A stretch of DNA of 64,000 bases, taken from Anaerolineae bacterium. GTDB taxonomy: Bacteria > Chloroflexota > Anaerolineae > DUEN01. Below are positions 7,302 to 46,522 of this stretch, in pieces. Made by a program: the position numbers and the translations under genes. The stretch is from the NCBI GenBank assembly GCA_025060615.1, contig JANXBS010000020.1, positions 7,319-71,318 of the forward strand, in the 5' to 3' direction. Under the pieces are notes generated by a model. That model ran no database searches. It was given only the letters and a program-made list of their open reading frames with translations, and was not told the DNA's origin. Positions within the stretch are counted from its first letter, which is position 1. The number at the start of each line of letters is the position of its first letter.

Positions 7302-7312
7302 GAGGTCGCACT

Positions 7313-8218: not shown

Positions 8219-8225
8219 GAGACAA

Positions 8226-11512: not shown

Positions 11513-12931
11513 CTACTGAGGCCACGACCAGGGTAAGGTGTTCTGGTATACCCAAGCAATAGTGTGCAATGCCTGCGCGGCGATGAGCATCACCCCTGCT
11601 TGTAGCAACGCCTCTCGATCGGACAAAACGGCCGCCAGACGGTCGGCCAGCAGTAGCGTCAGGGGAATCGCCGCAGGGGCGAAGAGATCCCAATCCCGCT
11701 GGCCGCCGTAGTCGGGGTTCCACGTCCAGATGAAGAGCAGGTAGGCGCCGCTCGCCAGGCATAGCAGGTGTGTCCACGTCGTGCCATGGCGCATCTGCGG
11801 CCAAGCTAGGAGCGCTAAGCATACTAACGCCGGCAACACTACCGGCGCGATCAGCAGTTGCTCGTTCACGATGTCGAGTAGGTGTCCCCACGAGAACATT
11901 GTGTAATGTTCCCACCGAGTTGTAGTCTTAAACAGTGGCACTAGCCAGCGGCCATCGCCGCCGCCAGGCCGATCCTCGCCGACCAGATAGGCCAGGCCAT
12001 GTCCCCCGCTTTCCATCAGGGTGATCACTCCGCCCGACACGACGATCATGGGCAACGCGATCTGCCAGGCAGCAACCAGGCCTCCACTTGTCCCCGCTCT
12101 GCGACGAGCCCAGGCCCAGCCCAGGTATACCAGCGACGGAGCCAGCAATAATGTCGAAGGATGCAGCGCATGGGTGATCGCCAGTGCTGTCGCTGGCCAG
12201 ACGGGCATGAGCCGTCCCTGCAGGCAACGCCAGGCCAGCCACAGGTAGACCATCATCCCCAAAGACATCAACGTGTAGTTCTCCACGTAACCGAAGAAGA
12301 GCTGGATAGTCCCCAGCGTGATAACCAGGCCAAAAGTGAGCGGAGGCAAAGAGCGCTTTGCTCCTGACGGCTCATCCCTGCCCGTAGCGGGTAGCGTGGA
12401 CAGCTCTGCCGAGAGCCGGGCCAGCACATGGACAAAAACCCCACCTGCCAGCGTGCTGGTCAGCGCATATGCGGGCATGGCATCGGCCCAGCCCCATAGC
12501 CGATGGCCGAGCGCCCATAGCTGCGCATGCAGATAGACAGTGAGCGGGGCCTGCCAGTTGTAGGTGAGGCGAACCTCTGGGTGGGCAATGGCCTGGCTGA
12601 GGATGTAGGCGTCGCCCCAGCGGGTATGAGCCAGGCGGAATAGCCAGAAGGGAATTAGGCTAACGAGGCCGAGCAGCCATGGGAGATGAGGAACAGGTGG
12701 GCGGTTGGAGAGGCGATCCAGCCATGTGGCGATGCGTTGTGTCATCGGCGGCCAACAGATGAAGGCAGCCAGCCCGGCCAACGTCCAGCGCATGGGCATC
12801 GGCAGATACGTCGCCGGCCACACCCCCCAGGCGTATGACTCGTCCAGAAAGTGGACCAGCCCGTGCAAGAGGATGATAGCCAACGCAAGGACCCGCAAAC
12901 TGGCGAGGATCCAAGGCGATCGGACAAGCAT
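11513..12931 (-). CDS. Multi-pass membrane protein, probable GT-C fold transferase
   Basis: About 10 hydrophobic segments; WGDAY in the first loop, FFGYVENY, WNPDYGGQRDWDLF. Start moved to ATG 12931 because ATG 12940 directly abuts the TACAAT -10 element. Confidence 0.6.
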   Translation of the reverse strand: MLVRSPWILASLRVLALAIILLHGLVHFLDESYAWGVWPATYLPMPMRWTLAGLAAFICWPPMTQRIATWLDRLSNRPPVPHLPWLLGLVSLIPFWLFRLAHTRWGDAYILSQAIAHPEVRLTYNWQAPLTVYLHAQLWALGHRLWGWADAMPAYALTSTLAGGVFVHVLARLSAELSTLPATGRDEPSGAKRSLPPLTFGLVITLGTIQLFFGYVENYTLMSLGMMVYLWLAWRCLQGRLMPVWPATALAITHALHPSTLLLAPSLVYLGWAWARRRAGTSGGLVAAWQIALPMIVVSGGVITLMESGGHGLAYLVGEDRPGGGDGRWLVPLFKTTTRWEHYTMFSWGHLLDIVNEQLLIAPVVLPALVCLALLAWPQMRHGTTWTHLLCLASGAYLLFIWTWNPDYGGQRDWDLFAPAAIPLTLLLADRLAAVLSDREALLQAGVMLIAAQALHTIAWVYQNTLPWSWPQ

Positions 12932-12940
12932 GATAGGCAT

Positions 12941-13168: not shown

Positions 13169-13197
13169 TTGTCACACGGTGTGCCGGATGCTATAAT
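13169..13197 (+). promoter_or_regulatory. Near-consensus sigma70 promoter (TTGTCA-17-TATAAT, with extended TG)
   Basis: TTGTCA 13169-74, TG 13189-90, TATAAT 13192-97; SD GGAGG 13225-29 before GTG 13235. Confidence 0.7.
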
Positions 13198-13234
13198 CGC
13201 CCCTGACTGACTCGAGACCCTGCGGGAGGCATGT

Positions 13235-16200
13235 GTGGCACGCGCCAACAGGTGGCTTGTCGCGTTCACCGGCCGCTACGAGTTGTTGCTGTTGATCGGC
13301 ATCCTCTTGGCGGCGCTGGCTCTACGGTTATACGATGTCAACTGGGACGAAGGACATCATACCCACCCTGACGAACGTTGGATCACGATCGTCGCCACGA
13401 CGATCCGCTGGCCTCAGGATCTCTCCAGCGCGTTTGATCCTCACGCCACCACCTGGAATCCCCTGTTCAACTACGAGGAAAGCCAAGCAACCGGCGAATA
13501 CCGGATGCGTCACTTCGCTTACGGCCATCTTCCCCTCTATCTGCTGACAACCACCGCCTGGATCTTACACAATCTCGCTCCTCTAGCCGAGAAGTTAAGT
13601 GCGCCAACCGACCTGGTGCGCTGGCTGGCGATGGCCAACACCTACGATGGCTTTCCTCAGGTAGGGCGTCCCCTCTCCGCCCTGCTGGACACCGGCACGG
13701 TCCTGCTGGTCTACGCGATCGGGAGGCGCATCTACGGGATTCGGGTCGGGCTCCTGGCCTCAGCACTCTCCGCGCTGACGGTGATACAGATTCAGCTGGC
13801 TCATTTTTACGCGTTCGATCCCGTGGCAACTTTCTTCATCATGTTGGCCTTGTTTAGCGCAGTGCGCCTGGCCCAGGGCGGAGGGTGGGGCTCGGCCATG
13901 CTGGCCGGGATCGCGGCTGGCTGCGCCGTCTCCTCCAAGTTTAGCGCCATGCCCATCCTGGCCGCGCTGGGGGTCGGCGCGCTGGTGCCGGCGTGGCGGG
14001 TGCTGCGACGGCACAATGTAAGCGACGCGCCAGCGATGGTCCAGCTGGGGATCACCGATGGGCTGGTGGCCACGGAGAGCCTGCGGGCTATGGGCTCTCC
14101 CGAGGCAGCCGGCTATCTCTCCCGTGGATTACTGTTGGCATTGTCGGCGTTTATCTGGGCCTTCATCGCTTTTGCCGTCACCTCACCCTTCGCGGTGCTG
14201 GACTGGGACGCATATCGTACGGCGGTGATCGAAGAGCAAGGGGCGATGGTGCGCGGCGAGGCCGATTTCCCGTATACGCGCCAGTACCGCGGCACGACGC
14301 CGTTCCTGTATCAGATCGAGCAGCAGGTGCGTTGGGGAATGGGCTGGCCGTTGGGGATGATGGCTTTCCTAGGACTGGGCTGGGCGCTGGCGCGGGCAGT
14401 GGTCGGCAGGGCGAAACCAGAAGAATCAGTCGTTTTGGCCTGGGTGGTCCCATACTTTGGACTGACAGGCCTTTTTATGGTCAAGTTTATGCGTTATATG
14501 CTGCCGCTGGTGCCCTTGTTCACATTGATGGGCACGGCGATGATGCACGCGTGGTGGGAGGCAAGTCGGCGAGTCGGTGAAGATGCCCTTGGCCCTTCGT
14601 ACGTCGTCCATCGTCTATCGTCTACCCTCTTACGTTTGGGCCGATTCTCACCCTGGATCGTAGCCGTGGTGTTGATCGGCACGGCGGTTTGGGCGCTGGC
14701 GTTCGTGAACGGGGTATACGGCGGAACGCACCCTTGGATTCAGGCCTCGCGTTGGTTCTACGAGCACGCGCCAGACGGTTCGGTGATCCTATGGGAGTAT
14801 TGGGATGATCCGCTACCCCTTTCTTTGCCAGAACCTAATGCGAATATGGCAGCGCACGGGTTTCAGCATATCGCCTGGGGGCCGTTCGAAGAGGACACGC
14901 CACAGAAGTTTGAGCTGATGAAGTCGGTGCTGCGTCAAGCCGACTTCATCGCGATCGCCTCGAATCGGATTTACCGGGCTGTGCCGCGCCTGCCGCAGCG
15001 GTACCCGATGACCATTCGCTACTATCAGCTCCTGTTCGAGGGCAAATTGGGCTTTGAGAAAGCGGCTGAATTCACGTCATACCCACGGCTGGGGCCGCTG
15101 GTGTTCGTGGATGATGATGCCGACGAGAGCTTTACCCTGTACGATCACCCCAAGCCGATCATTTTCCGCAAAGTGCGCGATCTGAGCGATGCCGAATGGG
15201 ATGCGCTGTTGGGTGGCTCGTGGCAGGAGGCCATCCCATATTATACCGGCTCACGGCGAGACCGAGAGCGAGCGCTGACATCGGCCGAGGGCAGCCGGCG
15301 CAAAAGCCTGCTGCTCGGTCGCCCGGTGGACGAGTTGCCTGTCGTGAACGACTTCCGCTGGAATCGAGTGGCCAGCCGCTGGCATGGTCTGGCGGTGATC
15401 GTATGGTGGATGACGCTGGCGTTGATCGGGCTGCTGGCTTGGCCGCTGACGTTCACCGTGTTCGCCAATTTGCGGGACCGCGGTTACGCCTTCTCGCGCG
15501 GGTTGGGATGGTTGGTGATAGGGTGGATCGTGTGGATCCTGGCCAGCCTGCGCCTTCTGCCCAACACGCTGCCCACACTGTTGTTGGCCCTGACGTTGCT
15601 AGCTGTGCTCTCCCTAGCGCTGTGGCAACGACGACGAGCGGAGATGGCGAGCTTCTGGCGGGCGCAATGGCCGTTAATCTTGGCGCACGAGGCGATCTTC
15701 AGCCTTGCCTTCCTGGCCTTCGTCTTCATCCGTCTGCTCAACCCGGATCTATGGCAGCCGTGGAACGGCGGCGAGAAGTTCATGGAGTTCGCCTTCCTCA
15801 ACGCGATCTTGCGTAGCGCTTACTTTCCGCCCTACGATCCGTACTACGCCGGCGGGTACATCAACTACTACTACTATGGCCAATACCTGGTGGCGCTGCT
15901 GATCAAGCTGACGGGCATCATCCCGTCGGTGGCCTTCAATTTGGCGATCCCCACGTTCTTCGCGCTGACCGTATCCGGCGCGTTTGGATTGGTGTACAAC
16001 CTGACCCCAACGGGCGGTATCCGCCGCGCCCGTTTCTGGGCGAAAGGCCTTGGTTGGGGACTGATCGGCAGCGCGCTGGTGACGTTGATCGGCAACTTGG
16101 ACGGCATGGGCCAGGTGTTGCGTAATCTGGGCCAGGTGGGCGGTAGCTCGTTTGAGAGCGCCATCCCCGGGCTGCAGACCCTCGTGCGGGCGGCTTGGGG

Positions 16201-17953
16201 CGTACAGGCAGTGCTCTTCAAAGGCGCTCATCTGCCCGAGTTCAACTACTGGGACCCCAGCCGAGTGATCCCGTTTACCATCAACGAGTTCCCGCTCTGG
16301 AGCTTCCTGTTCGCTGATCTACATCCGCACATGATCGGCATCCCTTTCACGATCCTGTTCCTAGGGCTGGCGTATAACCTGGTGGCCAGTTACGGTCGCC
16401 CATGGTTGGCTGAAGGCCGATGGGAGGGAACCTTGGCCTTTCTGGCCCTCCCGCTGACGCTGGGGGCATTGGGCGTCATCAACACTTGGGATCTGCCGAC
16501 GTATCTAGGCATGGGATTGCTGGCGTTCCTGCTCCGCGAATGGCGAGGATATGCGCTGCGACAGCCGGAGCCAGCCTTGCTCGGACACGTACGCTTGCGC
16601 CTGTTCTTGCCATACGCGGCAGCGTTGACTGGCTTGGCGCTAGGATTGTATCTGCCGTTCTACCGTTCCTACGCGGCGGTAGGATCCAGCGGCGTAGGCA
16701 TTGTGCGCCATCCCACCACGCTGGTTGGCCAGTGGCTGATGATGTGGGGATTCCTCGCCTTCCTCACAGTCTCCTTCGTCTTCAGCGAACTACGCCAGCC
16801 GTTGCCGCGTGGGCCGATGGGCAAAGTACGCCCCTCCGGGCTGGTGCGATGGGCACGCCTGTGGCTGGCATGGTGGGATCGGCCGGCTAGGCTGTTGGAA
16901 CTGCATGCCCTGCTGGTGCGAGCGCCCACCGCGGGATATGTATTGGCGCGCTGGGGACTCGGCCTGGGAATGCTGGTCGGGATCGCGGCTCTGCTGCTGA
17001 ACTATCGCGTCGTAGCGCTGCTGTGGCTGCCGTTGCTGGCGGCGACGCTTCTGCTCTTTCGAGACACAGTATCACCGGAAGATTTGTTCACCGGGGCGTT
17101 GATCTTCACTGGGCTGCTCATACTGGCAGGGGTAGAAGTCTTCTTCCTCAAAGATTTCCTGTGCGGTTGTCCTCCGGGCAGTGATACGGTCGGTGACTAC
17201 TATCGCATGAACACGCTGTTCAAGTTTTACATCCAGGCATGGGTGTTGTTGGGAATAGGAGGCGCAGCCGCGCTAGCTCGCCTGTGGCCGCGGGTGACAG
17301 ATCGCTGGCCATCCCACTGGCGGATTGCTTGGTCTGGAGCGTTCACGATCCTGCTGGCTTCTAGCCTGGTCTTCCCGCTCTTGGGCATCCCGGCACGAGT
17401 AGATGATCGGTTCCCGGGTGCGCGGCCGCCGCGCAATACGCTGGACGGCATGGCCTATATGACCGTAGGAGTATACACATGGCCAGATAGCAACAACCCG
17501 ATCGAGCTGCGATACGACTACGAGGCAATCCAATGGATGCTTGACCACATCCAGGGCACGCCTGTGGTGGCGGAGGCGCCGGCTTCTTGGTATCTAGTGA
17601 ATGGGCAGAATGTGGGGTATGACTACTATCGGGCAGGTGGGTTGCGCGTCGCCTCGTTGACAGGGTTCCCGGGACTGTTAGGACAACATCAGGGCGAGCA
17701 GCGCTATGGCGATCAGGTCGGCCCACGTGAGCGCGATGGGGTGGAGTTCTTCCAGACAACTGACCTTGCCCGTGCGCAGGCATTGATGGATCAGTTACGG
17801 ATTTCATATATCTATGTTGGTAAGTTGGAGCGCACCCTCTTCCCGCCTGAAAGCCTGGCCAAGTTCGATCAGATGACGGCGGAGGGCCGGTTAGAAGTGG
17901 TTTTTCAAAATGAACAGGTGAAGCTGTATCGGGTGATTCGCTCGAGTGGCTGA
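13235..17953 (+). CDS. Fusion of a PMT/ArnT-like GT-C domain and a DUF2298 (Chlor_Arch_YYY) membrane domain
   Basis: N half: HPDERW, IQLAHFYAFD, SSKFS, VKFMRY. C half: GGEKFMEFAFLNAI...GYINYYYYG, TINEFPLWSFLFADLHPH, YRMNTLFKFY. Confidence 0.8.
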   Translation: MARANRWLVAFTGRYELLLLIGILLAALALRLYDVNWDEGHHTHPDERWITIVATTIRWPQDLSSAFDPHATTWNPLFNYEESQATGEYRMRHFAYGHLPLYLLTTTAWILHNLAPLAEKLSAPTDLVRWLAMANTYDGFPQVGRPLSALLDTGTVLLVYAIGRRIYGIRVGLLASALSALTVIQIQLAHFYAFDPVATFFIMLALFSAVRLAQGGGWGSAMLAGIAAGCAVSSKFSAMPILAALGVGALVPAWRVLRRHNVSDAPAMVQLGITDGLVATESLRAMGSPEAAGYLSRGLLLALSAFIWAFIAFAVTSPFAVLDWDAYRTAVIEEQGAMVRGEADFPYTRQYRGTTPFLYQIEQQVRWGMGWPLGMMAFLGLGWALARAVVGRAKPEESVVLAWVVPYFGLTGLFMVKFMRYMLPLVPLFTLMGTAMMHAWWEASRRVGEDALGPSYVVHRLSSTLLRLGRFSPWIVAVVLIGTAVWALAFVNGVYGGTHPWIQASRWFYEHAPDGSVILWEYWDDPLPLSLPEPNANMAAHGFQHIAWGPFEEDTPQKFELMKSVLRQADFIAIASNRIYRAVPRLPQRYPMTIRYYQLLFEGKLGFEKAAEFTSYPRLGPLVFVDDDADESFTLYDHPKPIIFRKVRDLSDAEWDALLGGSWQEAIPYYTGSRRDRERALTSAEGSRRKSLLLGRPVDELPVVNDFRWNRVASRWHGLAVIVWWMTLALIGLLAWPLTFTVFANLRDRGYAFSRGLGWLVIGWIVWILASLRLLPNTLPTLLLALTLLAVLSLALWQRRRAEMASFWRAQWPLILAHEAIFSLAFLAFVFIRLLNPDLWQPWNGGEKFMEFAFLNAILRSAYFPPYDPYYAGGYINYYYYGQYLVALLIKLTGIIPSVAFNLAIPTFFALTVSGAFGLVYNLTPTGGIRRARFWAKGLGWGLIGSALVTLIGNLDGMGQVLRNLGQVGGSSFESAIPGLQTLVRAAWGVQAVLFKGAHLPEFNYWDPSRVIPFTINEFPLWSFLFADLHPHMIGIPFTILFLGLAYNLVASYGRPWLAEGRWEGTLAFLALPLTLGALGVINTWDLPTYLGMGLLAFLLREWRGYALRQPEPALLGHVRLRLFLPYAAALTGLALGLYLPFYRSYAAVGSSGVGIVRHPTTLVGQWLMMWGFLAFLTVSFVFSELRQPLPRGPMGKVRPSGLVRWARLWLAWWDRPARLLELHALLVRAPTAGYVLARWGLGLGMLVGIAALLLNYRVVALLWLPLLAATLLLFRDTVSPEDLFTGALIFTGLLILAGVEVFFLKDFLCGCPPGSDTVGDYYRMNTLFKFYIQAWVLLGIGGAAALARLWPRVTDRWPSHWRIAWSGAFTILLASSLVFPLLGIPARVDDRFPGARPPRNTLDGMAYMTVGVYTWPDSNNPIELRYDYEAIQWMLDHIQGTPVVAEAPASWYLVNGQNVGYDYYRAGGLRVASLTGFPGLLGQHQGEQRYGDQVGPRERDGVEFFQTTDLARAQALMDQLRISYIYVGKLERTLFPPESLAKFDQMTAEGRLEVVFQNEQVKLYRVIRSSG
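14561..14623 (+). repeat. Degenerate octamer and heptamer tandem repeats inside a CDS
   Basis: GCAAGTCG GCGAGTCG (14561-76); TTCGTAC GTCGTCC ATCGTCT ATCGTCT (14596-14623). Confidence 0.55.
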
Positions 17954-18028
17954 GGAAAACCAATAATACGTGGATGTCCTTGGGGTGTTGCTCTCAGATA
18001 TCCATCTATCCATCCTGGACAGGCGAAG

Positions 18029-20620
18029 ATGGGAGAGCTGTTGCGCTGGTGGATAGCCATCGAGGTGATCGGGCTGGTGGCCTGGCCGCTGGGCTGGCGG
18101 CTGTGTGGCAACCTAGCCGACCGCGGATACGGCTTGAGCAAGGCGCTGGGATTATTGCTGGTCAGCTATGTGCTATGGGTGACGTCAAGCTTCGGCTTCT
18201 TGGGCAACGACCTGGGCAGCATTCTGGCGAGTCTGCTGGCTGTGGCTGCGTGCTCGGCATGGGCGCTGCGCCGTGGCGACAGCAGCTGGGCTGCGCTACG
18301 AGACTGGATGCGCCAATACCGACGGCTGATCTTTTTCAATGAGGGGCTATTCCTGATCGCTTTCGTGGCCTGGGCTATCTTTCGCGCCTACGATCCGGCT
18401 ATCGCCGGCACCGAGAAGCCCATGGAGTTCGCCTTCCTAAACGGCATCCTGCGCAGCGACCGCTTCCCGCCGCTGGATCCATGGTTGGCAGGTTATGCCA
18501 TCAGCTACTACTACTTCGGCTATGTGATGCTGGCCGTGCTTGTGCGGCTGTCGGGCGTAGCATCGGCGGTGGGGTTTAACCTGGGCGTGGCGAGCTGGTT
18601 CGCGCTAACGGCCTTGGGCGCTTTCAGCGTAAGCTATAACCTGATCCATGGCATCCGACGGGAAGGGGAGCGCAAGCCGCGCTCGATCCGGGGGCTGGCC
18701 TTCGCGCTCTTGGGGCCATTGTTCGTGGCCGTATTGGGCAACTTAGAGGGGGTCTTCGAGGTCTTGCATGCGCGAGGGCTGGCCCCTGAGGCGTTGTTGC
18801 GCTGGCTAGATGTGAAGGACCTAGGAACGACTCCTCCCAGCGGCCAGTGGATTCCAACGGATAATTGGTGGTGGTGGCGGGCCTCTCGCGTTATTCAGGA
18901 TCGCGATCTGTTAGGGCGCAGCATCGGCGTGCAGCCCATTGACGAATTTCCCTTCTTCAGCTTCCTGCTGGGAGATATGCATCCTCACGTGCTGGCGCTA
19001 CCATTCGTACTGCTGGCGATTGGACTGGGGTTAAACCTGGTCTTGCACGCTCGTCAAGGGGTGATGGCTGGCAGTCAACCACCAACCCTTAGCGATCCGC
19101 CGTCCGCTGTCAGCGGTCGGTATTTCACGTCGCATGTTTCGCAGCTTGCAGATGATGTGTTGCACACTGCGTGGAACGTGGTAGATGGCTGGCCGATGAG
19201 GGTCCCCGGCTTCGCGCTGTACGCGCTGGCGCTTGGCGGGCTGGGCTTTCTCAACACGTGGGATTTCCCGATCTACCTGTTCTTAGTGACGGCGGCATTT
19301 GCCGTGCGGGAGATGGACAATGGACAGTGGGCGCCATGGATCGTCCGCCCTTTGCCCACCACCATCCTAGCAGGGGGGCTGTTGGGGGTGTTGGGCTTCC
19401 TGCTCTACCTACCGTTTTACCTGGGCTTTTCCTCTCAGGCAAGCGGGGTCTTGCCCAACCTCATCTTCCCCACCCGGCTGAACCAGTTCGGATTGATGTT
19501 CGGCACGTTCCTGGTGGTTCTATGCCTTTGGTTTACGATGTTCAGCGCAGAGATGGGCTGGCAACCGGTATTGCGGCGGTCACTGCGATGGCTGCCGTGG
19601 ACGCTAGCCGCTCCGATCGCGGTGATGGGGATGGCGGCTCTGCTGCTACCGATAACGCCGGCCGGACAGGCATTCCTGCGCGGTGTGTTCAGCCTACCCG
19701 AGGTCCAGGAGCAGGTGGGCGGGGCGAGCGTGGCCGAGATCCTCGCCCTCGTCGCTGGAGCGCGATTGCGCACGCCTGGCACTTCGTTACTGCTAGCGAT
19801 CGGCCTGGCGTGGGCATTGGGATTGATCGAAGGGCTAAGGATAAAAGTCGAAGGATGGAGGGCCAGGCTGAATGGCTACGTTTTGCTGATGGCCGGCACA
19901 GCGCTGTTGTTGACCTTCGCTGTGGAATGGGTGTATCTTAAGGATACCTTCGGCGTACGGATGAACACGGTTTTTAAGTTTTATTACCAGGCGTGGGTGT
20001 TGATGGCATTGGCGTCAGCCTACGCGGTGGCGCACATCGGACAATGGACTACGGAAGATGGACTATGGAAGGTGATCCGTCGTCTGTGGTTCGTTGTCAT
20101 CGCTGCGCTGGTAGGCGCCGGACTGGTCTACACCGTGGCCGCGGGGTACAGCAAGGCCAACGGCTTCCGGGGCGAGGCGACGTTGGATGGTCTGGCCTAC
20201 TTGCGACGCTTTCAGCCGGACGATGCGGCGGCCATAGCATGGCTGCAGGCAAATGTACAGGGCGCGCCAGTAGTGTTGGAGGCGCCAGGCGGATCGTATA
20301 GTCAATTTAACCGCATCTCGATGGCGACCGGGCTGCCGACGCTTCTGGGATGGGATGGCCATGAGCTCCAGTGGCGAGGCGATCGGTATGGGGAAGTGAC
20401 AGCTGGCCGGCCGGAGGCGATTGACCGCATCTACCGATCCGCGAAGGGGGAGGAACTGTTGGAGCTTATGCGGCGGTGGGATATCGAGTATCTGTACGTC
20501 GGCAGCCTGGAGCGAGAGAAATATCGCCTGACACCTGCGGCCTTGAGCCGGTTCGAGCAGGCGTTGTGGAAGGTATATGAGAACGAGACGGTGCGCATCT
20601 ACCGACGGCCGGGACCATAA
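18029..20620 (+). CDS. DUF2298 / Chlor_Arch_YYY membrane protein (GT-C-like)
   Basis: GTEKPMEFAFLNGILRS, ISYYYFG, IDEFPFFSFLLGDMHPH, RMNTVFKFYYQ; paralogous to the C half of 13235..17953. Confidence 0.85.
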   Translation: MGELLRWWIAIEVIGLVAWPLGWRLCGNLADRGYGLSKALGLLLVSYVLWVTSSFGFLGNDLGSILASLLAVAACSAWALRRGDSSWAALRDWMRQYRRLIFFNEGLFLIAFVAWAIFRAYDPAIAGTEKPMEFAFLNGILRSDRFPPLDPWLAGYAISYYYFGYVMLAVLVRLSGVASAVGFNLGVASWFALTALGAFSVSYNLIHGIRREGERKPRSIRGLAFALLGPLFVAVLGNLEGVFEVLHARGLAPEALLRWLDVKDLGTTPPSGQWIPTDNWWWWRASRVIQDRDLLGRSIGVQPIDEFPFFSFLLGDMHPHVLALPFVLLAIGLGLNLVLHARQGVMAGSQPPTLSDPPSAVSGRYFTSHVSQLADDVLHTAWNVVDGWPMRVPGFALYALALGGLGFLNTWDFPIYLFLVTAAFAVREMDNGQWAPWIVRPLPTTILAGGLLGVLGFLLYLPFYLGFSSQASGVLPNLIFPTRLNQFGLMFGTFLVVLCLWFTMFSAEMGWQPVLRRSLRWLPWTLAAPIAVMGMAALLLPITPAGQAFLRGVFSLPEVQEQVGGASVAEILALVAGARLRTPGTSLLLAIGLAWALGLIEGLRIKVEGWRARLNGYVLLMAGTALLLTFAVEWVYLKDTFGVRMNTVFKFYYQAWVLMALASAYAVAHIGQWTTEDGLWKVIRRLWFVVIAALVGAGLVYTVAAGYSKANGFRGEATLDGLAYLRRFQPDDAAAIAWLQANVQGAPVVLEAPGGSYSQFNRISMATGLPTLLGWDGHELQWRGDRYGEVTAGRPEAIDRIYRSAKGEELLELMRRWDIEYLYVGSLEREKYRLTPAALSRFEQALWKVYENETVRIYRRPGP
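20041..20103 (+). repeat. Heptamer array followed by a complementary-type heptamer array, inside a CDS
   Basis: ACAATGG ACTACGG AAGATGG ACTATGG AAGGTGA, then TCCGTCG TCTGTGG TTCGTTG TCATCGC. Confidence 0.55.
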
Positions 20621-20673
20621 TAGAAAGTCAACGGGTATCAGCAGGTAGCTTGTGGACTTGTAGGAGGACATGG

Positions 20674-22407
20674 TTGGCGGCCATGGAGCGGCCGATAGCA
20701 GCACGGATGACCTTTCTGGAATGGCTGACCCTGGAACGGGCGGCGTATGGTGGCCTTTTGCTGTTCGCCGGGCTGTGGCGCGTATTTCAACTTGGCCTGT
20801 ATCCGCTGAGGCCGGACGAAGCTCACCAGGCGTTGACAGCTTGGGAGGCAGCGCAAGGGCAACCTGTCACGCTGTGGGGGCTCAGCCCACTGCTGTTCAC
20901 ACTGCAGGAGCTCACCTTCATTTTCATGCAGGCCGGCGATGCAGCAGCCCGTCTCGGGCCAGCGCTGGCGGGCTTGGCCATCTGTCTGATCCCCTATGCC
21001 CTGCGCTCGCGGTTGGGACGTGAAGAGGCGTTGATAGCTGCGGGGTTTCTGGCCCTCTCGCCTACGCTGACGTATTTCTCGCGATATGCCTCCGGAGACG
21101 TGATGGCGGCGATGTTCGCGTTAGCGGCGTTGGCGGCCGGGCTGGCTGCCGTAGAGGATCGACGCTGGCTGTCCTGGGTGGGGGTGTCGCTGGCGTTGGC
21201 GCTGCTCAGCGGGCCGGGAGCCTACACGGCATTGCTGGCAGGGATACTGTGTTTCGGATTTTGGATTTGGGATTTCGGGTTTCGGGCGTCAGAACTTGGA
21301 GGCCGGAAGCTTGGGATTGGCCGGGGATGGCTGGCGGGCGGCCTGGTTTTTCTGTTGGGGGCAACGGCCGGGCTGCGGCATTGGGATGGCGTCGGCGCGG
21401 CGGCGGGGCTGTTGGGCGCGTGGGCTGCGCGTTGGTCACACCCAGAGCTGGAGTATCCGATCTATTGGCCGTTGCTTCGGCTGATCCTGGACGAGCCGTT
21501 GCTACTTGTCTTTGGCATGTATGGAGCCATTGTAGGCGTGCGCCAGGGTGATGGGCTCTCTAGGACGCTCACGTTGTGGGCGGGATTGGCTGTGCTGCTG
21601 CCAACGTTGACGCCGGGCCGGCAGCCCGAGGACCTGGTGATCGCCATCCCACCGCTGGCATTGCTGGCAGGACAAGGCGCAACCTCTTTTCTGCACTGCT
21701 TGGACTTCGGCCCTGCTCGCCTAGAGGTTGCAGCTTTCCTCGCTGTCATGGGGGTATTGCTGGTTACCCTATATGTCTGGGTTTCCGGCTACAGCCTGTG
21801 GGGTACTGCCCAGTATGTGATCGCCATGCTAGCACCGCTGGGGCTGATGACAGGGCTAGCGTTGTTTTACGGCGTCTGGGTCGGCTGGCGGGTGACAGGG
21901 CAGGCGGTAGCGCTGTTTGGCTCAGCCGTGGGACTGTTATGGACGCTCAGCGCAGGTTGGATTAACGCCCATGGGGTGGATCTGAACCGGCGGCCGGCGG
22001 TTCAGTGGGAGATGACATCTGAGGAAGTGCGGATGCTGGCCGGGCAGGTCCAGCGGTTGTCCACGCAGCGGGTGGGCGATCCGCATCTGTTGCCTGTGGA
22101 GATCGTAGACACACCACAGGCGCCGGTGTTGCGATGGTATCTGCGAGATATAGCCGATCTTCGGATAATCGGGGCTCCATTGCGAGGCGAGGCCGCTCCA
22201 GTGGTGATCACACCATTCACCGCAGAGTGGGCGCCGGGCGAGCAATATAGGGGACAGGACTTCTTGGTCACCGAACGATGGACACCGATAGGACTACACG
22301 GGCGTGAGTTGGTGCGTTGGCTATTGCTACGCCAGGGGTTGACGCTAGCGGAACAACATCGCGCCATCTTGTGGGTAGAGGAAAGCAACGAGGTGCTGGG
22401 GCAATAA
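20674..22407 (+). CDS. TIGR03663-like GT-C membrane protein (divergent paralogue)
   Basis: RPDEAH, GDAAARL, LALSPTLTYFSRY match the N-terminus of the downstream gene. Start is TTG 20674 (SD AGGAGG) or ATG 20683. Confidence 0.7.
   Translation: MAAMERPIAARMTFLEWLTLERAAYGGLLLFAGLWRVFQLGLYPLRPDEAHQALTAWEAAQGQPVTLWGLSPLLFTLQELTFIFMQAGDAAARLGPALAGLAICLIPYALRSRLGREEALIAAGFLALSPTLTYFSRYASGDVMAAMFALAALAAGLAAVEDRRWLSWVGVSLALALLSGPGAYTALLAGILCFGFWIWDFGFRASELGGRKLGIGRGWLAGGLVFLLGATAGLRHWDGVGAAAGLLGAWAARWSHPELEYPIYWPLLRLILDEPLLLVFGMYGAIVGVRQGDGLSRTLTLWAGLAVLLPTLTPGRQPEDLVIAIPPLALLAGQGATSFLHCLDFGPARLEVAAFLAVMGVLLVTLYVWVSGYSLWGTAQYVIAMLAPLGLMTGLALFYGVWVGWRVTGQAVALFGSAVGLLWTLSAGWINAHGVDLNRRPAVQWEMTSEEVRMLAGQVQRLSTQRVGDPHLLPVEIVDTPQAPVLRWYLRDIADLRIIGAPLRGEAAPVVITPFTAEWAPGEQYRGQDFLVTERWTPIGLHGRELVRWLLLRQGLTLAEQHRAILWVEESNEVLGQ
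21252..21286 (+). repeat. Five heptamer tandem repeats inside a CDS
   Basis: TTTCGGA TTTTGGA TTTGGGA TTTCGGG TTTCGGG, encoding FGFWIWDFGFR. Confidence 0.75.
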
Positions 22408-22487
22408 GTCAGCGAGAAATTCAACTATCTCGTCGCCTTGCTGCCCGAATGCCTGCTATCTTCTTGACCAATGGCAAGGGGTCGGAG

Positions 22488-25400
22488 ATGGAGAAGAACT
22501 CTACCGAATCACCGTGTGCATGGGACACATCCTTGTTGGCGCTCATTCGATGGAACTGGGAGAAGACAGCCTGGGCCGTGGTGATCGCGATCGCGCTCGT
22601 GGCTCGTCTATACGGGTTGAGCTGGCGGGCGATGAGCCACGACGAGAGTTTGCACTCACTGTACTCGTGGCAGCTCTACGATGGGCGCGGCTATGAGCAT
22701 AACCCGATGATGCACGGCCCGTATCTGTTTCACCTCAACGCGCTGTTCTATTTTCTGTTCGGAGTCAATGACGCTACGGCGCGGGTCGCAGTGGCGCTGA
22801 CCGGCACTGGTATGGTAGCGTTACTGTGGTACCTGCGTCCGTGGTTGGGCCAAGTTGGCGCGTTGGCCGCCGCTGTCATGATGACCATCTCGCCTTCGCT
22901 GCTGTACTACTCGCGCTACATTCGTCATGACGTGCTGCTTGCGATGTGGGAGCTGGTGCTAGTGATCGCCGTGTTCCGGTATTTGCAAGATCGGCGGGAA
23001 CATTGGCTATACCTGGCCGCCGTCGCCCTGTCGCTGGCATACGCAACCATGGAGGCCTCGTTCATCAACACTGTTATCCTAGTCGGCTTCTTGCTCGTCT
23101 ATTTGCTCTTCCTGTTCTGGCGCGAGCGATGGGATCGGCCAAGGCATCGCTTGCCATTCTTCGCTTCATTTGTGCTGGGGAGTGGTGCGGCGATCGTAGC
23201 GCTGTACAGCGTAATCGAGGCGGAACCAGGTCAGCCCTCACCTTTAGCATTCCTCTTCGTTGCAGGGATGATCTTGCTGCTATGGGCGATTTACTTACTA
23301 TTCACTGGCCTGGGACAGCATATCAAGACATATCCTGAGATGGATGTCCTAATCTGGCTGGTCTCCCTATCCCTGCCCCTCTTTAGCGCCTTTCTGATCA
23401 AGCTCATGGGATGGGATCCGTTGGATTACTCATCCGCCGGCATCGTGCGTTCAGGGAGCGTACTGCTGGTGATGTCGGCGGCAGCGATCGCAATCGGATG
23501 GGGATGGGCAGGTCAGCGCTGGCTGGTCGGCGCTGGGCTGTTCTACGCGATCTTCCTAACGCTATTCACCACATTCTTTACCAACGGCAAGGGATTTGCA
23601 ACGGGCATCATCGGCAGCTTAGGATACTGGATGGCACAGCAGGAAGTCCAGCGCGGAGGCCAACCATGGTATTACTACCTGCTCCTAGGCCCGATGTATG
23701 AGTTCCTGCCGCTGTTGCTCAGCCTGGGCGGGATCATAACCTTCGTCGCTGTGAATCTGTCTCCTGTCACAAGAGGCTTGCGGCCACTGCGGGCGCGTGT
23801 GCCAGCTAAGGTTGCCTTGCATCGCCAGCCTATATCGCAGCGAGAGACAGCTCCAGGGAGACTGCCTATCAACCCGGAGCCGGCGGCGCGAGCCGATCCA
23901 AACGAAAAGGAAGGCGCCACTGTGAGAGCGCCGCTAGTGCTGTATCTAATCTGGTGGACGTTATTCGCCTGGGGCATGTTCAGTTGGGCCGGCGAGAAGA
24001 TGCCATGGCTAACGTTACATCTGGCGTTTCCGATGACGCTGTTGGGTGGCTGGTTTGCGAATTGGCTGTGGGAACGGGTGGATCGCCAGGCGTTGCGTGA
24101 ACGAGCGTGGTGGAAGCTGGCGATCGTGTTGCCGCTGCTAGCCTTCACCCTGGGGCCGCTGAGCGATTTTCTGCGCCGATTGGTGGCCGGTCAGGCGTTT
24201 CGAGATACTACCATCAATGGACTGAGCGCAACGACGCAAGGGATGGCGGCCTTGGTGATGTCAGTAGCGTTGATCTACCTGGGGTGGGGCTACGCGGAGC
24301 GGTTGGGTGCCCGTCACAGCCTGTCAGTAGTGGCAGGCCTATTGATTCTTGGGCTAACGATGTGGACCGTGCGCGTCACCTGGATGCTGAACTACATCAA
24401 CTATGACCTGGTCAACGAGATGCTGGTCTACGCGCATGGCACGCCTGATATCAAATTCGTCATGAACGAGATCGAGATGATCTCGCGACGCACGGTGGGG
24501 GACAAGCAGATCAAGTTGGCCTACGATGACGATTCCACCTGGCCGCTGGAGTGGTATCTGCGCGAGTATCCCAACAAGGTGTTCTACGGGGCGAATCCTA
24601 GCCGCGAGGCGCTGGACGCGCCAGTGGTGATCGTGGGAGATAAGAACGAGAGCAAAGCCAGGCCGTTCCTGGGCAACAAATACCTGCGCTATAAGTACCG
24701 ATTGGTCTGGTGGCCACGCGAGGATTACAAGGGGCTAACCTGGGAACGGCTGTGGAACGGTATTCGGGATCCGGAGAAGCGACGCAAATTCTGGGATGTC
24801 CTGCTCTATCGGAAGTGGGATACGCCGCTGAACCAGTGGCCCTATGTCCACAACTTTTACCTGTACGTGCGACGGGACATCGCAGCGCAAGTATGGAATT
24901 TCGGCGCCGGGCCGGTGGAGACGCCGGCGGTAGTGGACCCCTACGAAAAAGGATACCGCGAGGTAGCTGCCATCCGCCAGATTGGCGTGACCGGACTGCC
25001 GGGCATGGCGCCAGGGCAGTTCCAGACGCCGCGCGGCGTGGCGATTGCCCCGGACGGCCGGATTGTCGTGGCCGACAGCGGTAACCACCGCATCCAGGTG
25101 TTCGACGCACAGGGTGACTTCCTGACGGCCTGGGGATCGAGCTGTGACCTGTATGCAGAGGGACGGCCAGGGTGTGTGGATCCTGACGGTAACGGGCCGC
25201 TCCAGTTAGGCGATGGCCAGTTCCATGAGCCGTGGGGGGTAGCGGCGGATGCGCAAGGCAACATCTACGTGGCCGACACGTGGAACCATCGCATTCAGAA
25301 GTTCAGCCCGGATGGCAGGTTCCTCAAGAAGTGGGGATTCTTCATCACGACAGGTGGGCAACTGGGTGAGCCGATAGGGATGTGGGGGCCGCGCGCCATC

Positions 25401-25904
25401 GTCGTGGATGAGCAGGGAAACCTCTACGTCACTGACACTGGCAACAAACGTGTGCAGAAGTTCGACCCGGAGGGCAACTTCCTAGGGCAATGGGGCGGTG
25501 GCGGCGTGGTCGAGGGACGCATGGACGAGCCCGTCGGCCTGGCCATCGACGCCCAGGGGAATTTCTACGTGGCAGATACCTGGAATCGGCGCATTCAGAA
25601 GTTCGACGCCAATTTCGCCTTCATCAAAGAGTGGCCGATCGCCGGTTGGGAGAGCCAATCCATCGTCAACAAACCTTACCTGGCCATAGATCGTGAGGCC
25701 GGGCTGGTGTACGCGACGGACCCGGAGGGATATCGGGTGCTGGTGTTCGACACAGAAGGCAACTTCCGGGCCGCGTTTGGCCAATATGGGTCTGATGAGA
25801 AGTCGTTCGGGCTTCCTAACGGCGTTGCCGTGGATGCCCAGGGCCACGTCTATGTGGCCGATGCCGACAACCATCGGATCATGGTGTTCCCGCGGGTTCA
25901 ATGA
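22488..25904 (+). CDS. TIGR03663-family (Agl23-like) GT-C membrane protein fused to a C-terminal NHL beta-propeller
   Basis: SHDES and HGP motifs, SPSLLYYSRYIRHD, GEKMPWL. About six NHL repeats (PRGVAIAPDG.IVVADSGNHRIQVFD, PWGVAAD..GNIYVADTWNHRIQKF). Start moved to ATG 22488. Confidence 0.82.
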   Translation: MEKNSTESPCAWDTSLLALIRWNWEKTAWAVVIAIALVARLYGLSWRAMSHDESLHSLYSWQLYDGRGYEHNPMMHGPYLFHLNALFYFLFGVNDATARVAVALTGTGMVALLWYLRPWLGQVGALAAAVMMTISPSLLYYSRYIRHDVLLAMWELVLVIAVFRYLQDRREHWLYLAAVALSLAYATMEASFINTVILVGFLLVYLLFLFWRERWDRPRHRLPFFASFVLGSGAAIVALYSVIEAEPGQPSPLAFLFVAGMILLLWAIYLLFTGLGQHIKTYPEMDVLIWLVSLSLPLFSAFLIKLMGWDPLDYSSAGIVRSGSVLLVMSAAAIAIGWGWAGQRWLVGAGLFYAIFLTLFTTFFTNGKGFATGIIGSLGYWMAQQEVQRGGQPWYYYLLLGPMYEFLPLLLSLGGIITFVAVNLSPVTRGLRPLRARVPAKVALHRQPISQRETAPGRLPINPEPAARADPNEKEGATVRAPLVLYLIWWTLFAWGMFSWAGEKMPWLTLHLAFPMTLLGGWFANWLWERVDRQALRERAWWKLAIVLPLLAFTLGPLSDFLRRLVAGQAFRDTTINGLSATTQGMAALVMSVALIYLGWGYAERLGARHSLSVVAGLLILGLTMWTVRVTWMLNYINYDLVNEMLVYAHGTPDIKFVMNEIEMISRRTVGDKQIKLAYDDDSTWPLEWYLREYPNKVFYGANPSREALDAPVVIVGDKNESKARPFLGNKYLRYKYRLVWWPREDYKGLTWERLWNGIRDPEKRRKFWDVLLYRKWDTPLNQWPYVHNFYLYVRRDIAAQVWNFGAGPVETPAVVDPYEKGYREVAAIRQIGVTGLPGMAPGQFQTPRGVAIAPDGRIVVADSGNHRIQVFDAQGDFLTAWGSSCDLYAEGRPGCVDPDGNGPLQLGDGQFHEPWGVAADAQGNIYVADTWNHRIQKFSPDGRFLKKWGFFITTGGQLGEPIGMWGPRAIVVDEQGNLYVTDTGNKRVQKFDPEGNFLGQWGGGGVVEGRMDEPVGLAIDAQGNFYVADTWNRRIQKFDANFAFIKEWPIAGWESQSIVNKPYLAIDREAGLVYATDPEGYRVLVFDTEGNFRAAFGQYGSDEKSFGLPNGVAVDAQGHVYVADADNHRIMVFPRVQ

Positions 25905-25947
25905 TGGGCGCGCGTTCGAGGAGCGAGAGACTTACGGAAGGTGTGCG

Positions 25948-26955
25948 ATGGCTCAACCGCCGATCTCCCCGCAGTTCCTGGTCACTGGCGCTCAGGGATG
26001 TATCGGTGCCTGGGTGATTTATCGGCTAGTGACGGCTGGTTATCAACCTTTCGCTTTCGATCTCGATCCTACTCCGCGCCGGCTGCGGCTGATCGCAACG
26101 CCAGAGGAGATCGAACGCGTACACTTCGTCGCCGGTGACATCACCGACGGCGACCATCTGATGCATATCGTGCTGACACAGAGGATCACCCACATCATCC
26201 ATTTGGCGGCCTTACAGATCCCCGCCTGCCGTGCGGATCCCCTCTTGGGGGCGAGGGTTAACGTACTGGGCACGCTCAATGTGTTCGAGGCGGCCCGCCG
26301 CTTGCGCGATCAGGTGCAGCGCGTGGTGTATGCTTCGTCGGCCGCAGCATTTGGGCCGGAGGAGGCTTATGGCCCCGAGGCGGTCCCCGACACGGCTTCG
26401 CTGGCACCGACTACCCATTACGGCGTATTCAAACAATGTAATGAGGGGAACGCTCGCGTCTACTGGCTAGAGCATGGTATCACCTCCATCGGCCTGCGGC
26501 CGTGGGCGGTATATGGGGTTGGACGTGATCAGGGATTGACTGCCGACCCTACCCGGGCGATCTTGGCGGCGTTGCAAGGTCGCCCCTTTCGCATTGGCTT
26601 CGGCGGTCGCGCCGACATGCAGTATGTGGACGATGTGGCGCGCGTCTTCATCGCCTGCGCGCTGACGCCATATCAAGGGGCAGGTGTTTTTAATCTGCGC
26701 GGCGATGTGGTGACGGTAGACGAGCTCATCGAAGCCATCGAAGCGGCCGTGCCAGGGGCTCGCCAGCTTATCACACATGGCGATCAGCAGATCCCTATTG
26801 CCCCATCGCTGGACGACAGTGGGTTGCGGGCGTTATTAGGGAAGGTGCCGCACACGCCTCTGCGGGAAGGGATAGCCTGCACAGCGGAGCGCTTCCGTCA
26901 GCTCCTGGCCGAGGGTCGGATAGGTGACATAAGCCGGGATGGCCGTGCAACGTAA
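25948..26955 (+). CDS. NAD-dependent epimerase/dehydratase (extended SDR)
   Basis: LVTGAQGCIG Rossmann motif, HLAA, YGVFK catalytic YxxxK. Start moved to ATG 25948. Confidence 0.9.
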   Translation: MAQPPISPQFLVTGAQGCIGAWVIYRLVTAGYQPFAFDLDPTPRRLRLIATPEEIERVHFVAGDITDGDHLMHIVLTQRITHIIHLAALQIPACRADPLLGARVNVLGTLNVFEAARRLRDQVQRVVYASSAAAFGPEEAYGPEAVPDTASLAPTTHYGVFKQCNEGNARVYWLEHGITSIGLRPWAVYGVGRDQGLTADPTRAILAALQGRPFRIGFGGRADMQYVDDVARVFIACALTPYQGAGVFNLRGDVVTVDELIEAIEAAVPGARQLITHGDQQIPIAPSLDDSGLRALLGKVPHTPLREGIACTAERFRQLLAEGRIGDISRDGRAT

Positions 26956-27055: not shown

Positions 27056-28219
27056 ATGTCCAATCCCGCGGAGGTGTCAGATAAGGTGGCGAAAGGGCTG
27101 GAAGGCATAGTGGTCGCCACCACCCAGCTCAGCAAGGTAGACGGTATCGCGGGCCGCCTATACTACCGGGGATACAACATTGATGACCTGGCGGAACACG
27201 CGACGTTCGAGGAGGTCGCATACCTGCTGTGGTTCGGACATCTGCCGAACCGACAGGAGCTAGCCCAAATCCGAAGCATGATGGTCCAGCACCGCTTCAC
27301 GCTCTACCCGGAAGTGATAGACCTGCTGCGCCGTATACCTCGCCAGGCAGTGCCGATGTCCGTCCTGCGCTGCGTGGTTTCGTTCCTAGGCCATTATGAT
27401 CCTGACGCCGAGGACAACAGCCCAGAGGCATCTATCAAGAAGGCGTATCTGCTGACCAGCCAATTTGCCAATGCTATCGCTGCGTTCGATCGTCTGCGCA
27501 AGGGGCTGGAGCCAATCGAACCCCGCCGAGACCTGAACCACGCCGGCAATTTCCTGTACATGCTGACCGGCCAGGAGCCGGACGACGTTGCTAGCCGCGC
27601 GCTGGAAATGTATCTGATTCTGCTGGCCGACCACGGGTTTAACGCCTCCACCTTTGCCGCCCGGGTGACGGCGTCCACGCTGAGCGATATGTATTCGGCC
27701 ATCACCTCAGCGGTGGGCGCGCTCAAGGGGCCGCTGCATGGCGCAGCTAACGAAGGAGCGATGGAGCAGTTCATGGAAATTGGCTCTGTGGCGAACGTAG
27801 AAGTGTGGTTCCAAAGGGCTAAGGCGGAAAAGCGACGGATCATGGGAGTGGGGCATCGTGTGTACAAGGTCTTCGATCCGCGCGGCCGGCATCTGCGACA
27901 TGTCGCGCTGCAACTAACGGAGACCACCCAGGATCGGCGCTGGCTGGATATCGCGCTGAAGCTGGAGCAGGTGGTGAAGGATGATCCGTACTTCAACGAG
28001 CGCCGGCTGTATCCCAACGTGGACTACTACTCCGCGCCGTTGTTGTACACGCTGGGCATCGCCATAGATCTGTTCCCAACGATTTTTGCGATGGCCCGTA
28101 TCGTTGGATGGACGGCTCATGTCATGGAGCAATGGGCGGATAATCGGCTGATCCGCCCGAAAGAAGAGTACGTTGGGCCACTAGACCTGCCCTGGGTGCC
28201 GTTGGAGCAGCGTCATTGA
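27056..28219 (+). CDS. gltA: Citrate synthase (type I-like; citrate/2-methylcitrate synthase family)
   Basis: LYYRGY, DHGFNASTFAARV, GPLHGAANE, GVGHRVYK, YPNVDYYS. Confidence 0.93.
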   Translation: MSNPAEVSDKVAKGLEGIVVATTQLSKVDGIAGRLYYRGYNIDDLAEHATFEEVAYLLWFGHLPNRQELAQIRSMMVQHRFTLYPEVIDLLRRIPRQAVPMSVLRCVVSFLGHYDPDAEDNSPEASIKKAYLLTSQFANAIAAFDRLRKGLEPIEPRRDLNHAGNFLYMLTGQEPDDVASRALEMYLILLADHGFNASTFAARVTASTLSDMYSAITSAVGALKGPLHGAANEGAMEQFMEIGSVANVEVWFQRAKAEKRRIMGVGHRVYKVFDPRGRHLRHVALQLTETTQDRRWLDIALKLEQVVKDDPYFNERRLYPNVDYYSAPLLYTLGIAIDLFPTIFAMARIVGWTAHVMEQWADNRLIRPKEEYVGPLDLPWVPLEQRH

Positions 28220-46505: not shown

Positions 46506-46522
46506 CCAAGGCGCGAGGCGCG

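Follow-up and report, generated by a model that had tools for sequence, protein, structure and literature searches.

Within a 64-kb stretch of DNA from an Anaerolineae bacterium, the whole of which is referred to here as the window, five long open reading frames (ORFs), all of them intact, lie head to tail on the plus strand between positions 13235 and 26955 (genes A to E). The ORFs and hidden Markov models (HMMs) bear out the five-gene co-directional run described in the original prediction, which was made from the sequence alone. As the family HMMs do match, the refuting condition set there, a lack of HMM matches, does not apply. Genes A to D appear to encode five membrane modules of the type C glycosyltransferase (GT-C) class in four proteins, an assignment drawn from structural models in the case of B and D and from sequence profiles in the case of C and the N-terminal half of A. 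Gene starts were refined using the translations, inspection of ribosome-binding sites and an independent gene call on an identical contig. Gene A (13235-17953, 1572 aa) has a GTG start and a GGGAGG ribosome-binding site at 13225-13230, gene B (18029-20620, 863 aa) has an ATG start, and gene C (20674-22407, 577 aa, in a frame open from 20650) has a TTG start with an AGGAGG ribosome-binding site. Genes D (22488-25904, 1138 aa, frame open from 22317) and E (25948-26955, 335 aa, frame open from 25693) both start with ATG, and the intergenic gaps A-B, B-C, C-D and D-E are 75, 53, 80 and 43 bp, respectively. A promoter-like site on the plus strand (TTGTCA-17 nt-TATAAT, with an extended -10 TG) is located at 13169-13197, 38 nt 5' of the start of gene A. 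It agrees with the consensus at 11 of 12 positions and ranks top in the region, as a consensus match only, and the number of such sites in the region is not above that in shuffled sequence. No convincing terminator was found in the D-E interval, and scans against Rfam and for tandem repeats gave no match. Beyond E the co-directional run goes on with genes for citrate synthase (27056-28219) and galactokinase (28234-29424), after gaps of 100 and 14 bp. The earlier view of a complete five-gene operon therefore holds for the run itself, but not for an end at E, since the run extends to 29424.

Predicted GT-C modules of genes A to D

Gene B encodes a stand-alone DUF2298/TIGR03662 protein for which we predict a GT-C fold. 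It scores 522 bits against TIGR03662 over aa 4-859 (cut-off 300.25) and 389.3 bits against the Pfam family DUF2298 (PF10060). TIGR03662 is described as a family of strongly hydrophobic proteins of 700-900 aa, or of a longer fused form, with a YYYxG motif. This feature is present in B as SYYYFG (aa 159-164, where Y160-Y162 and G164 are invariant, n=42) and in A as YYYYG. The C-terminal half of A (15335-17953, plus strand), which continues the reading frame of the preceding PMT-like half, likewise belongs to DUF2298/TIGR03662 (Chlor_Arch_YYY), with 562.7 bits against TIGR03662 over aa 719-1567 (cut-off 300.25) and 406.8 bits against Pfam DUF2298. A literature search found no paper on the function of DUF2298, TIGR03662, Chlor_Arch_YYY or PF10060, in agreement with the earlier statement that function, sugar and acceptor are unknown; matches to "YYY domain" concerned the unrelated Y_Y_Y propeller domain.

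Searches of PDB chain sequences with A, B, a B-family profile and the TIGR03663 membrane domain gave no meaningful match, and Pfam searches at E values up to 10 added no weak GT-C match for DUF2298, so that the fold assignment of this family rests on AlphaFold2 and Foldseek. B was modelled on an alignment of 42 sequences and D from its first 823 residues, and both models were compared with the PDB. The B model (pLDDT 85.4, pTM 0.91) retrieved GT-C enzymes as all of its top 11 matches, each at probability 1.00, and only GT-C enzymes at E <3e-3. The best of these were human STT3A (8b6l_I, E 2.6e-5) and Archaeoglobus fulgidus AglB (7e9s_A, 3.3e-5), followed by DPY19, yeast STT3 and AftA, with ArnT at E 0.026; unrelated transporters appeared only at probability <=0.33. 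In addition, the C-terminal domain of B matched the C-terminal globular domain of AglB (3vu0_B, probability 0.99). Judged from the model, the placement of B within GT-C is at the level of the class and is not a close one. The predicted GT-C fold of DUF2298 was missed in the original prediction, and it changes the picture from one of YYY plus Agl23-like proteins to one of five GT-C modules.

Alignment of the 42 DUF2298 sequences (B numbering) reveals invariant residues along the protein, comprising E129, K130, M132, E133, D150 and Y160-Y162; N238; W281-W283, S286, R287 and D291; D305, E306, F307 and P308; D316, H318, P319 and H320; N409 to D412; R644 to T647; and a C-terminal motif with W775..H778, E779, Q781, W782 and R783. 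The invariant motifs of B, all on the plus strand and predicted to be extracytoplasmic, are TEKPMEF (18410-18430), SYYYFG (18503-18520), WWWWRASRV (18866-18892), IDEFP..GDMHPH (18938-18988), NTWD (19253-19264) and GWDGHELQWRG (20348-20380). Their counterparts in A, also on the plus strand, are GEKFMEF (15770-15790), YYYYG (15866-15880, aa 878-882), NEFP..ADLHPH (16283-16330) and NTWD (16481-16492). The DUF2298 half of A thus retains EK.MEF, YYY, D.HPH, NTWD and RMNT, and departs from B at D305 (Asn in A) and in the C-terminal motif. The positive-inside rule, applied to the helices of the AlphaFold2 model, gave a predicted topology of B. Loops 26-33, 83-97 and 208-219 (RREGERKPRSIR) are basic, the latter two being rich in Arg and Lys, and are therefore likely to be cytoplasmic, which would put loops 121-178 and 236-318 outside the membrane. 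The invariant acidic and His residues would accordingly sit in external loops of the model. Since this arrangement leaves the N-terminus of B outside, the fusion in A would be topologically consistent, with an external soluble domain followed by the first transmembrane helix of DUF2298.

The N-terminal half of A (approximately aa 1-700; 13235-15334, plus strand) is a predicted GT-C module of the PMT/PMT_2 type. This half and gene C are assigned to GT-C only via the PMT/PMT_2 HMMs and profiles. Within the whole protein, aa 108-258 score 48.7 bits against PMT and 39.9 bits against PMT_2, and the values are 51 and 41.9 bits when the N-terminal half is scanned alone. The first transmembrane helix is followed by HPDER (aa 44-48, nucleotides 13364-13378), of which H44, P45, D46, E47 and R48 are each invariant in 15 orthologues, and this half also holds a soluble domain of ~200 aa. 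Its family profile matches yeast Pmt1 (E 1.7e-4) and Pmt2 (E 5.7e-4), and hhalign relates it to the D (TIGR03663) family through the PMT_2 core with a probability of 90% and E 1.5e-6, although BLASTP of this half against C and D gave no detectable similarity. As it scores just 18.1 bits against TIGR03663 (cut-off 126.25), it is not a member of that family; it is a third module of the PMT_2 superfamily beside C and D.

The membrane part of D and its alpha/beta domain (aa 1-823; 22488-24956, plus strand) form a TIGR03663 (Agl23 family) GT-C module, which scores 269.4 bits against a cut-off of 126.25. The description of TIGR03663 includes an invariant DE dipeptide, an HGP tripeptide and two Arg residues near the N-terminus. 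D carries this signature as SHDES (22635-22649), MHGP (22710-22721), AR and SRYIR, and it is kept in the orthologues of D. The kinship with Agl23 that had been proposed for D is upheld by a Halogeometricum protein annotated as Agl23, with which D shares 33% identity over 162 aa (E 3e-21) with DE, HGP and SR..R aligned. The AlphaFold2 model of D (pLDDT 85.1, pTM 0.87) retrieved GT-C enzymes as all of its top 28 Foldseek matches at probability 1.00, the best being ArnT (5f15, E 1.5e-7, TMt 0.54), and STT3, ALG9, ALG12 (TMt 0.60), Pmt1/2/4, PglB and EmbB were found further down. The C-terminal part of D (24957-25904, plus strand) is an NHL-repeat beta-propeller (NHL 175.5 bits, five repeats) whose nearest relatives are the propellers of Thin and TRIM71 (E 3e-62 to 3e-47) and the sensor domain of PknD (1e-15). 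The propeller is probably extracytoplasmic and is a candidate acceptor- or partner-binding domain.

In contrast, gene C (20674-22407, plus strand) encodes a divergent TIGR03663-like PMT_2 protein that scores 90.6 bits against TIGR03663, under the cut-off of 126.25, and 37.8 bits against PMT_2. The two paralogues of each family that had been claimed are thus real in the case of DUF2298, where the C-terminal half of A is paralogous to B over the full length (30% identity, E 4e-82), but only loosely so for TIGR03663, where C and D are distant paralogues (31% identity over 176 aa, E 5e-18) and the HMM scan retains A and B as TIGR03662 and D as TIGR03663 without including C. The Glu of the DE dyad (20818-20820) is present in 54 of 54 orthologues of C, whereas no more than 4 of the 54 have the Asp, and S-P occurs where TIGR03663 has HGP. 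Because the Asp and HGP have been lost, C is a degenerate and possibly non-catalytic paralogue, yet it is strongly retained.

In proteins of the PMT type, the first external loop (loop 1) carries an acidic DE dyad. The N-terminal half of A and D may resemble them in this respect, the former also matching Pmt1 and Pmt2 by sequence profile as noted above, and among the ArnT (GT83) and PMT/TMTC (GT39/GT105) enzymes the D model is nearest to ArnT 5f15. More generally, a conserved D/E follows a transmembrane helix in the N-terminal half of A, in D and in the DUF2298 modules, with Glu only in C, these positions being read from the sequences rather than from residue-level superposition. The addition of soluble domains, NHL in D and TPR in relatives of the module, recalls the MIR domains of PMT and the TPR of TMTC. 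However, the Pfam scores of the module are low compared with PMT, TMTC and ArnT (38-51 bits over ~110-150 aa) and MIR domains are lacking. We know of no PMT or ArnT that is fused to or clustered with DUF2298.

Gene order across Chloroflexota

More than 7,000 homologues of B were found at E <1e-5, the best non-self match being 83% identical, and those with a source name are, among the matches listed, all from Chloroflexota metagenome-assembled genomes (MAGs) of Anaerolineae and Caldilineae. An exhaustive profile search for DUF2298 yielded 9,379 representatives of clusters formed at 50% identity, 4,657 of them with E <=1e-30. The membrane part of D has ~1,800 homologues, most with the NHL fusion, and several of those sourced from NCBI are already named "flippase activity-associated protein Agl23". 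Gene order was assessed in 80 loci obtained from a scan of one genome per species, with which the proteins of the window were compared by tblastn; 79 of these are labelled as Chloroflexota lineages and one (L077) as Proteobacteria. The PMT-like and DUF2298 parts occur in a single ORF in 48 of 49 loci, and an A-type gene lies upstream of B in 45 of the 52 with enough sequence. Downstream of B, 56/61 loci have a C-type gene and 21/39 a D-type gene, which invariably carries NHL. The co-occurrence of TIGR03662 and TIGR03663 mentioned in the original prediction is therefore evident, both in these counts and in the adjacency of the genes in the window. From the counts we regard A-B-C as the conserved unit, to which D is often attached. 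The closest relative on a long contig (L081, D 77% identical) has the same order, A(1602)-B(868)-C(588)-D(1137), between different flanks, with TauE upstream and AP_endonuc_2 and DUF3090 downstream.

The module is a native and widespread feature of Chloroflexota that standard HMMs already label, and the window holds one more typical copy of it. What the analysis adds is the GT-C assignment of DUF2298 and the finding that gene order and the PMT-like::DUF2298 fusion are almost invariant. Other lineages have A and B themselves fused, in proteins of 2,400-2,700 aa that consist of PMT_2 and two copies of DUF2298, with or without TPR. Examples of such giant fusions are P0280, P0346 and P0297, and a C-terminal TPR is often present. 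One locus (L086 8001-18980) has a giant fusion followed by another DUF2298 gene, with no TIGR03663 gene nearby. Recurrent neighbours elsewhere, namely a 744-aa PMT_2 protein, GT4 and LPG_synthase_TM, have no homologue in the window. Outside the phylum, plasmid pNP95 of Pseudobutyrivibrio xylanivorans (L085, NZ_CP043029.1 60347-82422) carries a Firmicutes DUF2298 gene whose neighbours encode two glycosyltransferases of family 2 (GT2), DegT, a glucosyltransferase-domain protein, an O-antigen-ligase-family protein and an NDP-sugar epimerase/dehydratase, and which by its gene content lies in what appears to be a surface-polysaccharide cluster.

Gene E (25948-26955, plus strand) belongs to the extended short-chain dehydrogenase/reductase (SDR) NAD-dependent epimerase/dehydratase family, with GxxGxxG at 25987-26007 and YxxxK at 26419-26433. 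Only the general family was matched (PF01370 Epimerase, 115.8 bits), and no NCBIfam equivalog reached its cut-off, the scores being 75.7/325 for ErythonDh, 63.6/262.3 for GalE and 52.7/365 for dTDP-glucose 4,6-dehydratase. The inclusion of the epimerase in the operon is contradicted by the comparison of loci, since tblastn found no homologue of E downstream of the module in any of 39 related loci (0/39), and E is also absent from the closest relative, where AP_endonuc_2 and DUF3090 take its place. On these grounds E is a local chance neighbour outside the conserved module. It is possibly co-transcribed with the module, but its adjacency carries little weight because the citrate synthase and galactokinase genes continue the same co-directional run.

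Another candidate component, the divergent ORF at 11513-12940 (minus strand), was considered as a sixth member of the module and rejected, as it never adjoins the module in other loci. It encodes a polytopic membrane protein of 472-475 aa with no Pfam or NCBIfam match, has ~890 homologues that are ~50% identical across Anaerolineae (those with a source name are all from Chloroflexota), and has an L-D-E-S motif right after the first hydrophobic segment.

Proposed function and competing explanations

Sediments, hot springs and wastewater sludge are rich in filamentous Chloroflexota (Anaerolineae, Caldilineae), a group whose envelope is poorly understood and of which few cultured, genetically workable representatives exist. 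On balance, and with some reserve, we favour the reading in which A-D constitute a conserved Chloroflexota envelope-glycosylation module that transfers polyprenyl-phosphate-linked sugars to an extracytoplasmic acceptor. This proposal starts from the fold, family membership, motif conservation, gene order and fusions described above, and goes on to infer a lipid-linked donor, sidedness, complex formation and catalytic competence. The four proteins would act together in the cytoplasmic membrane, at the outer face of which sugars would be moved from polyprenyl-phosphate-linked donors to an acceptor that may be an envelope protein or a polysaccharide bound to the wall. The catalytic step would depend on conserved acids in the first external loops, namely the DE of the A N-terminal half and of D, and in DUF2298 on E129, E133 and D150 together with the D-x-H-P-H cluster. 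The NHL propeller of D, and in fused relatives the TPR repeats, would serve to bind the acceptor or a partner, and the donor synthase and any GtrA-type flippase would be encoded elsewhere. A bacterial host would use carriers of the undecaprenyl type and not dolichyl ones, unlike the host of Agl23. On this reading the module would be among the largest and best-conserved envelope gene sets of the group, and the GT-C placement of DUF2298, with its fusion and linkage, would provide a testable hypothesis for ~9,400 uncharacterised protein clusters.

The organisation of the module resembles that of the mycobacterial EmbCAB/Aft enzymes, in which paralogous GT-C genes lie side by side and carry C-terminal extracytoplasmic binding domains, and which assemble a polysaccharide linked to the wall, using a polyprenyl-phosphate sugar whose synthesis is encoded at another place in the genome; both AftA and EmbB occur among our fold matches. 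The likeness is organisational only, as other GT-C families are involved and no genes of an arabinan or decaprenyl-phosphate pathway were seen. The general logic that we propose is that of the three-component GtrA/GtrB-type GT2/GT-C systems (PMC11127046), from which the module differs in that GtrA and GT2 genes are not adjacent and only the GT-C component is present, five-fold.

Several observations weigh against this reading. The TM-scores of the B model are modest (0.26-0.41) and the root-mean-square deviations large, and its fold assignment consequently rests on a consistent ranking of matches and not on close superposition. Neither Pfam nor PDB searches linked the sequence of DUF2298 to STT3, and hhalign revealed no relationship between the DUF2298 and TIGR03663 profiles (probability 1%). 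No GtrA or GT2 polyprenyl-phosphate sugar synthase was found in the window by phmmer with one GtrA and two GT2 queries, and the same program gave only two weak GT2 matches beside the module in 80 related loci; because these genes are missing from the window and almost so from the other loci, the lipid-linked donor is purely inferred. About half of the loci have no D next to the module, and the literature search brought up no biochemical data on any DUF2298 protein. Finally, the sole characterised member of TIGR03663, Agl23 of Haloarcula hispanica, is reported to be a lipid-linked-glycan flippase and not a transferase (PMC11182771).

A bolder version of the glycosylation reading is put forward only tentatively. 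In this version DUF2298 would be an unrecognised catalytic GT-C family and an obligate partner of PMT_2/TIGR03663 modules, with A-B-C(-D) as the principal machine for making an envelope glycan or glycoprotein found throughout Chloroflexota. If this were true, Agl23 proteins would be subunits of such an assembly, acting in transfer or in the handling of carriers, and not simple flippases.

The work on H. hispanica Agl23 lends itself to another scheme, which we consider possible but rather unlikely and which does not exclude the glycosylation module favoured above, namely that labour is divided between D (and perhaps C) as ATP-independent scramblases of polyprenyl-phosphate-linked sugars or glycans and DUF2298 (and perhaps the PMT-like half of A) as transferases. 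In the same source, the protein is described as a putative hexose-P-dolichol flippase; when purified it flipped M5GN2-PP-Dol/Phy in proteoliposomes, and it suppressed yeast rft1-delta (PMC11182771, which cites Lu et al. 2020). D scores above the curated cut-off of the Agl23 family, has the DE, HGP and Arg signature in common with an archaeal homologue and adjoins TIGR03662 genes, as TIGR03663-type genes do in most loci; no GtrA-type flippase gene is near the module; and C, which lacks the Asp and HGP yet is kept in 56/61 loci, would fit a non-catalytic role in lipid handling. On the other hand, D has a complete predicted GT-C fold nearest to ArnT, with a DE dyad in what would be the position of the catalytic acids of PMT-type enzymes, and is ~500 aa longer than Agl23 and has a C-terminal NHL propeller, a probably external large domain not obviously needed by a flippase; C is below the family threshold. 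The resemblance of D to its archaeal homologue is limited to 33% identity over 162 aa, in a comparison made with the Halogeometricum protein and not with the H. hispanica sequence, and the fact that only about half of the loci have D at the module is also difficult to accommodate. In Halogeometricum borinquense, the Agl23-annotated gene of plasmid pHBOR02 (L083 11917-14288; NC_014731.1 284541-286912) has a 4-nt overlap with a GtrA-family gene. The flippase of three-component systems is presumed to be GtrA, whose large partner is the GT-C transferase (PMC11127046). By analogy, Agl23 in pHBOR02 may occupy the slot of the transferase, a single example that fits poorly with the "flippase" label and in which translational coupling to GtrA would make a second flippase redundant. 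A search of PLSDB for further archaeal Agl23-GtrA pairs returned only the pHBOR02 record, and a match on a Halarchaeum plasmid was an uninformative C-terminal fragment at the end of the record. These considerations bear on the dispute over Agl23, since the TIGR03663 protein that has been studied is called a flippase and yet the family has a full predicted glycosyltransferase fold and a conserved dyad of the catalytic type.

It is unlikely that the DUF2298 proteins are oligosaccharyltransferase-like analogues of STT3/AglB/PglB (GT66) that move a ready-made glycan as a whole onto envelope proteins, with the PMT-like and TIGR03663 modules adding or delivering single sugars. The best PDB fold matches of the B model are indeed STT3A and AglB, its C-terminal domain matches the AglB globular domain, all of these proteins are large and polytopic with a C-terminal soluble domain, and the TPR of the fused relatives and the NHL of D are commonly protein-binding domains, a role that may extend to them here. 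However, the scores of DPY19, AftA and ArnT come close to that of STT3, which implies a match to the GT-C class and not specifically to oligosaccharyltransferases. DUF2298 shows no detectable sequence similarity to GT66, has approximately four extra N-terminal helices before the conserved external loop, and superposes with TM-scores of just 0.31-0.41. No STT3 family in Pfam or NCBIfam was matched at E values up to 10, apart from archaeo_STT3 at 17 bits (cut-off 450) solely in the N-terminal half of A, PDB searches found no sequence match, and the motif WWD[YWFN]G is found in neither A nor B; we therefore conclude that DUF2298 is not a member of the STT3 family. Moreover, no genes for the assembly of lipid-linked oligosaccharides are located nearby, and the Pseudobutyrivibrio DUF2298 gene lies in a putative polysaccharide cluster.

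Lastly, a self-contained, horizontally acquired operon of archaeal type in which E supplies the nucleotide sugar is highly unlikely: although a gap of 43 bp without a terminator-like site separates E from D, which is on the same strand, the GxxGxxG and YxxxK motifs of E are intact, and TIGR03662/TIGR03663 are common to Archaea (as seen in the family names and one haloarchaeal homologue), E is absent downstream in all 39 loci and from the closest relative, citrate synthase and galactokinase genes follow it in the same run, and the GC content of the module is uniform (0.58-0.63) and equal to that of the rest of the window. The notion of a bacterial instance of an archaeal-type module does not survive either, as the same order and fusion recur throughout Chloroflexota MAGs, and the conservation of the module across the phylum, with thousands of homologues, favours vertical inheritance over recent acquisition.

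Other genes in the window

A second concentration of GT-C-type genes is located on the minus strand at 39458-56975. It comprises two DUF2079 genes (39458-42037 and 47346-49754), a GT87 gene (49736-52015), a 589-aa ORF with no family match (51952-53721) and a gene for a 1085-aa PMT/PMT_2 protein (53718-56975), and it also contains a SpoIID-domain protein (43311-46349) and an aminoglycoside 3-N-acetyltransferase-like gene (46523-47320). Including A-D, the 64-kb window has a total of nine modules with a GT-C-type family match. An ORF on the plus strand at 37-1875 (612 aa) has no Pfam family and resembles only the C-terminal end of the streptococcal glycosyltransferase PgfM2, in a very weak local match (21 bits).

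Upstream of the module, a ribose-type ATP-binding cassette (ABC) transporter operon (5793-11452, plus strand) encodes an ATPase, two BPD_transp_2 permeases and a Peripla_BP_4 binding protein, and a 301-aa protein that matches VIT1, and more weakly rubrerythrin, is encoded between the ATPase and the permeases (7313-8218). Downstream, on the minus strand, are genes for a 248-aa protein with an Mrr_cat restriction-endonuclease domain (30571-31317) and for a 569-aa protein (32302-34011) in which the UvdE UV-endonuclease domain covers aa 35-239 only, the remainder being a long extension with no family assignment. A Crp-family regulator gene on the plus strand is followed by one for a 713-aa NosZ-like protein (58595-61732 together), which has the nitrous-oxide-reductase propeller repeat and a sub-threshold cupredoxin/COX2-like match.

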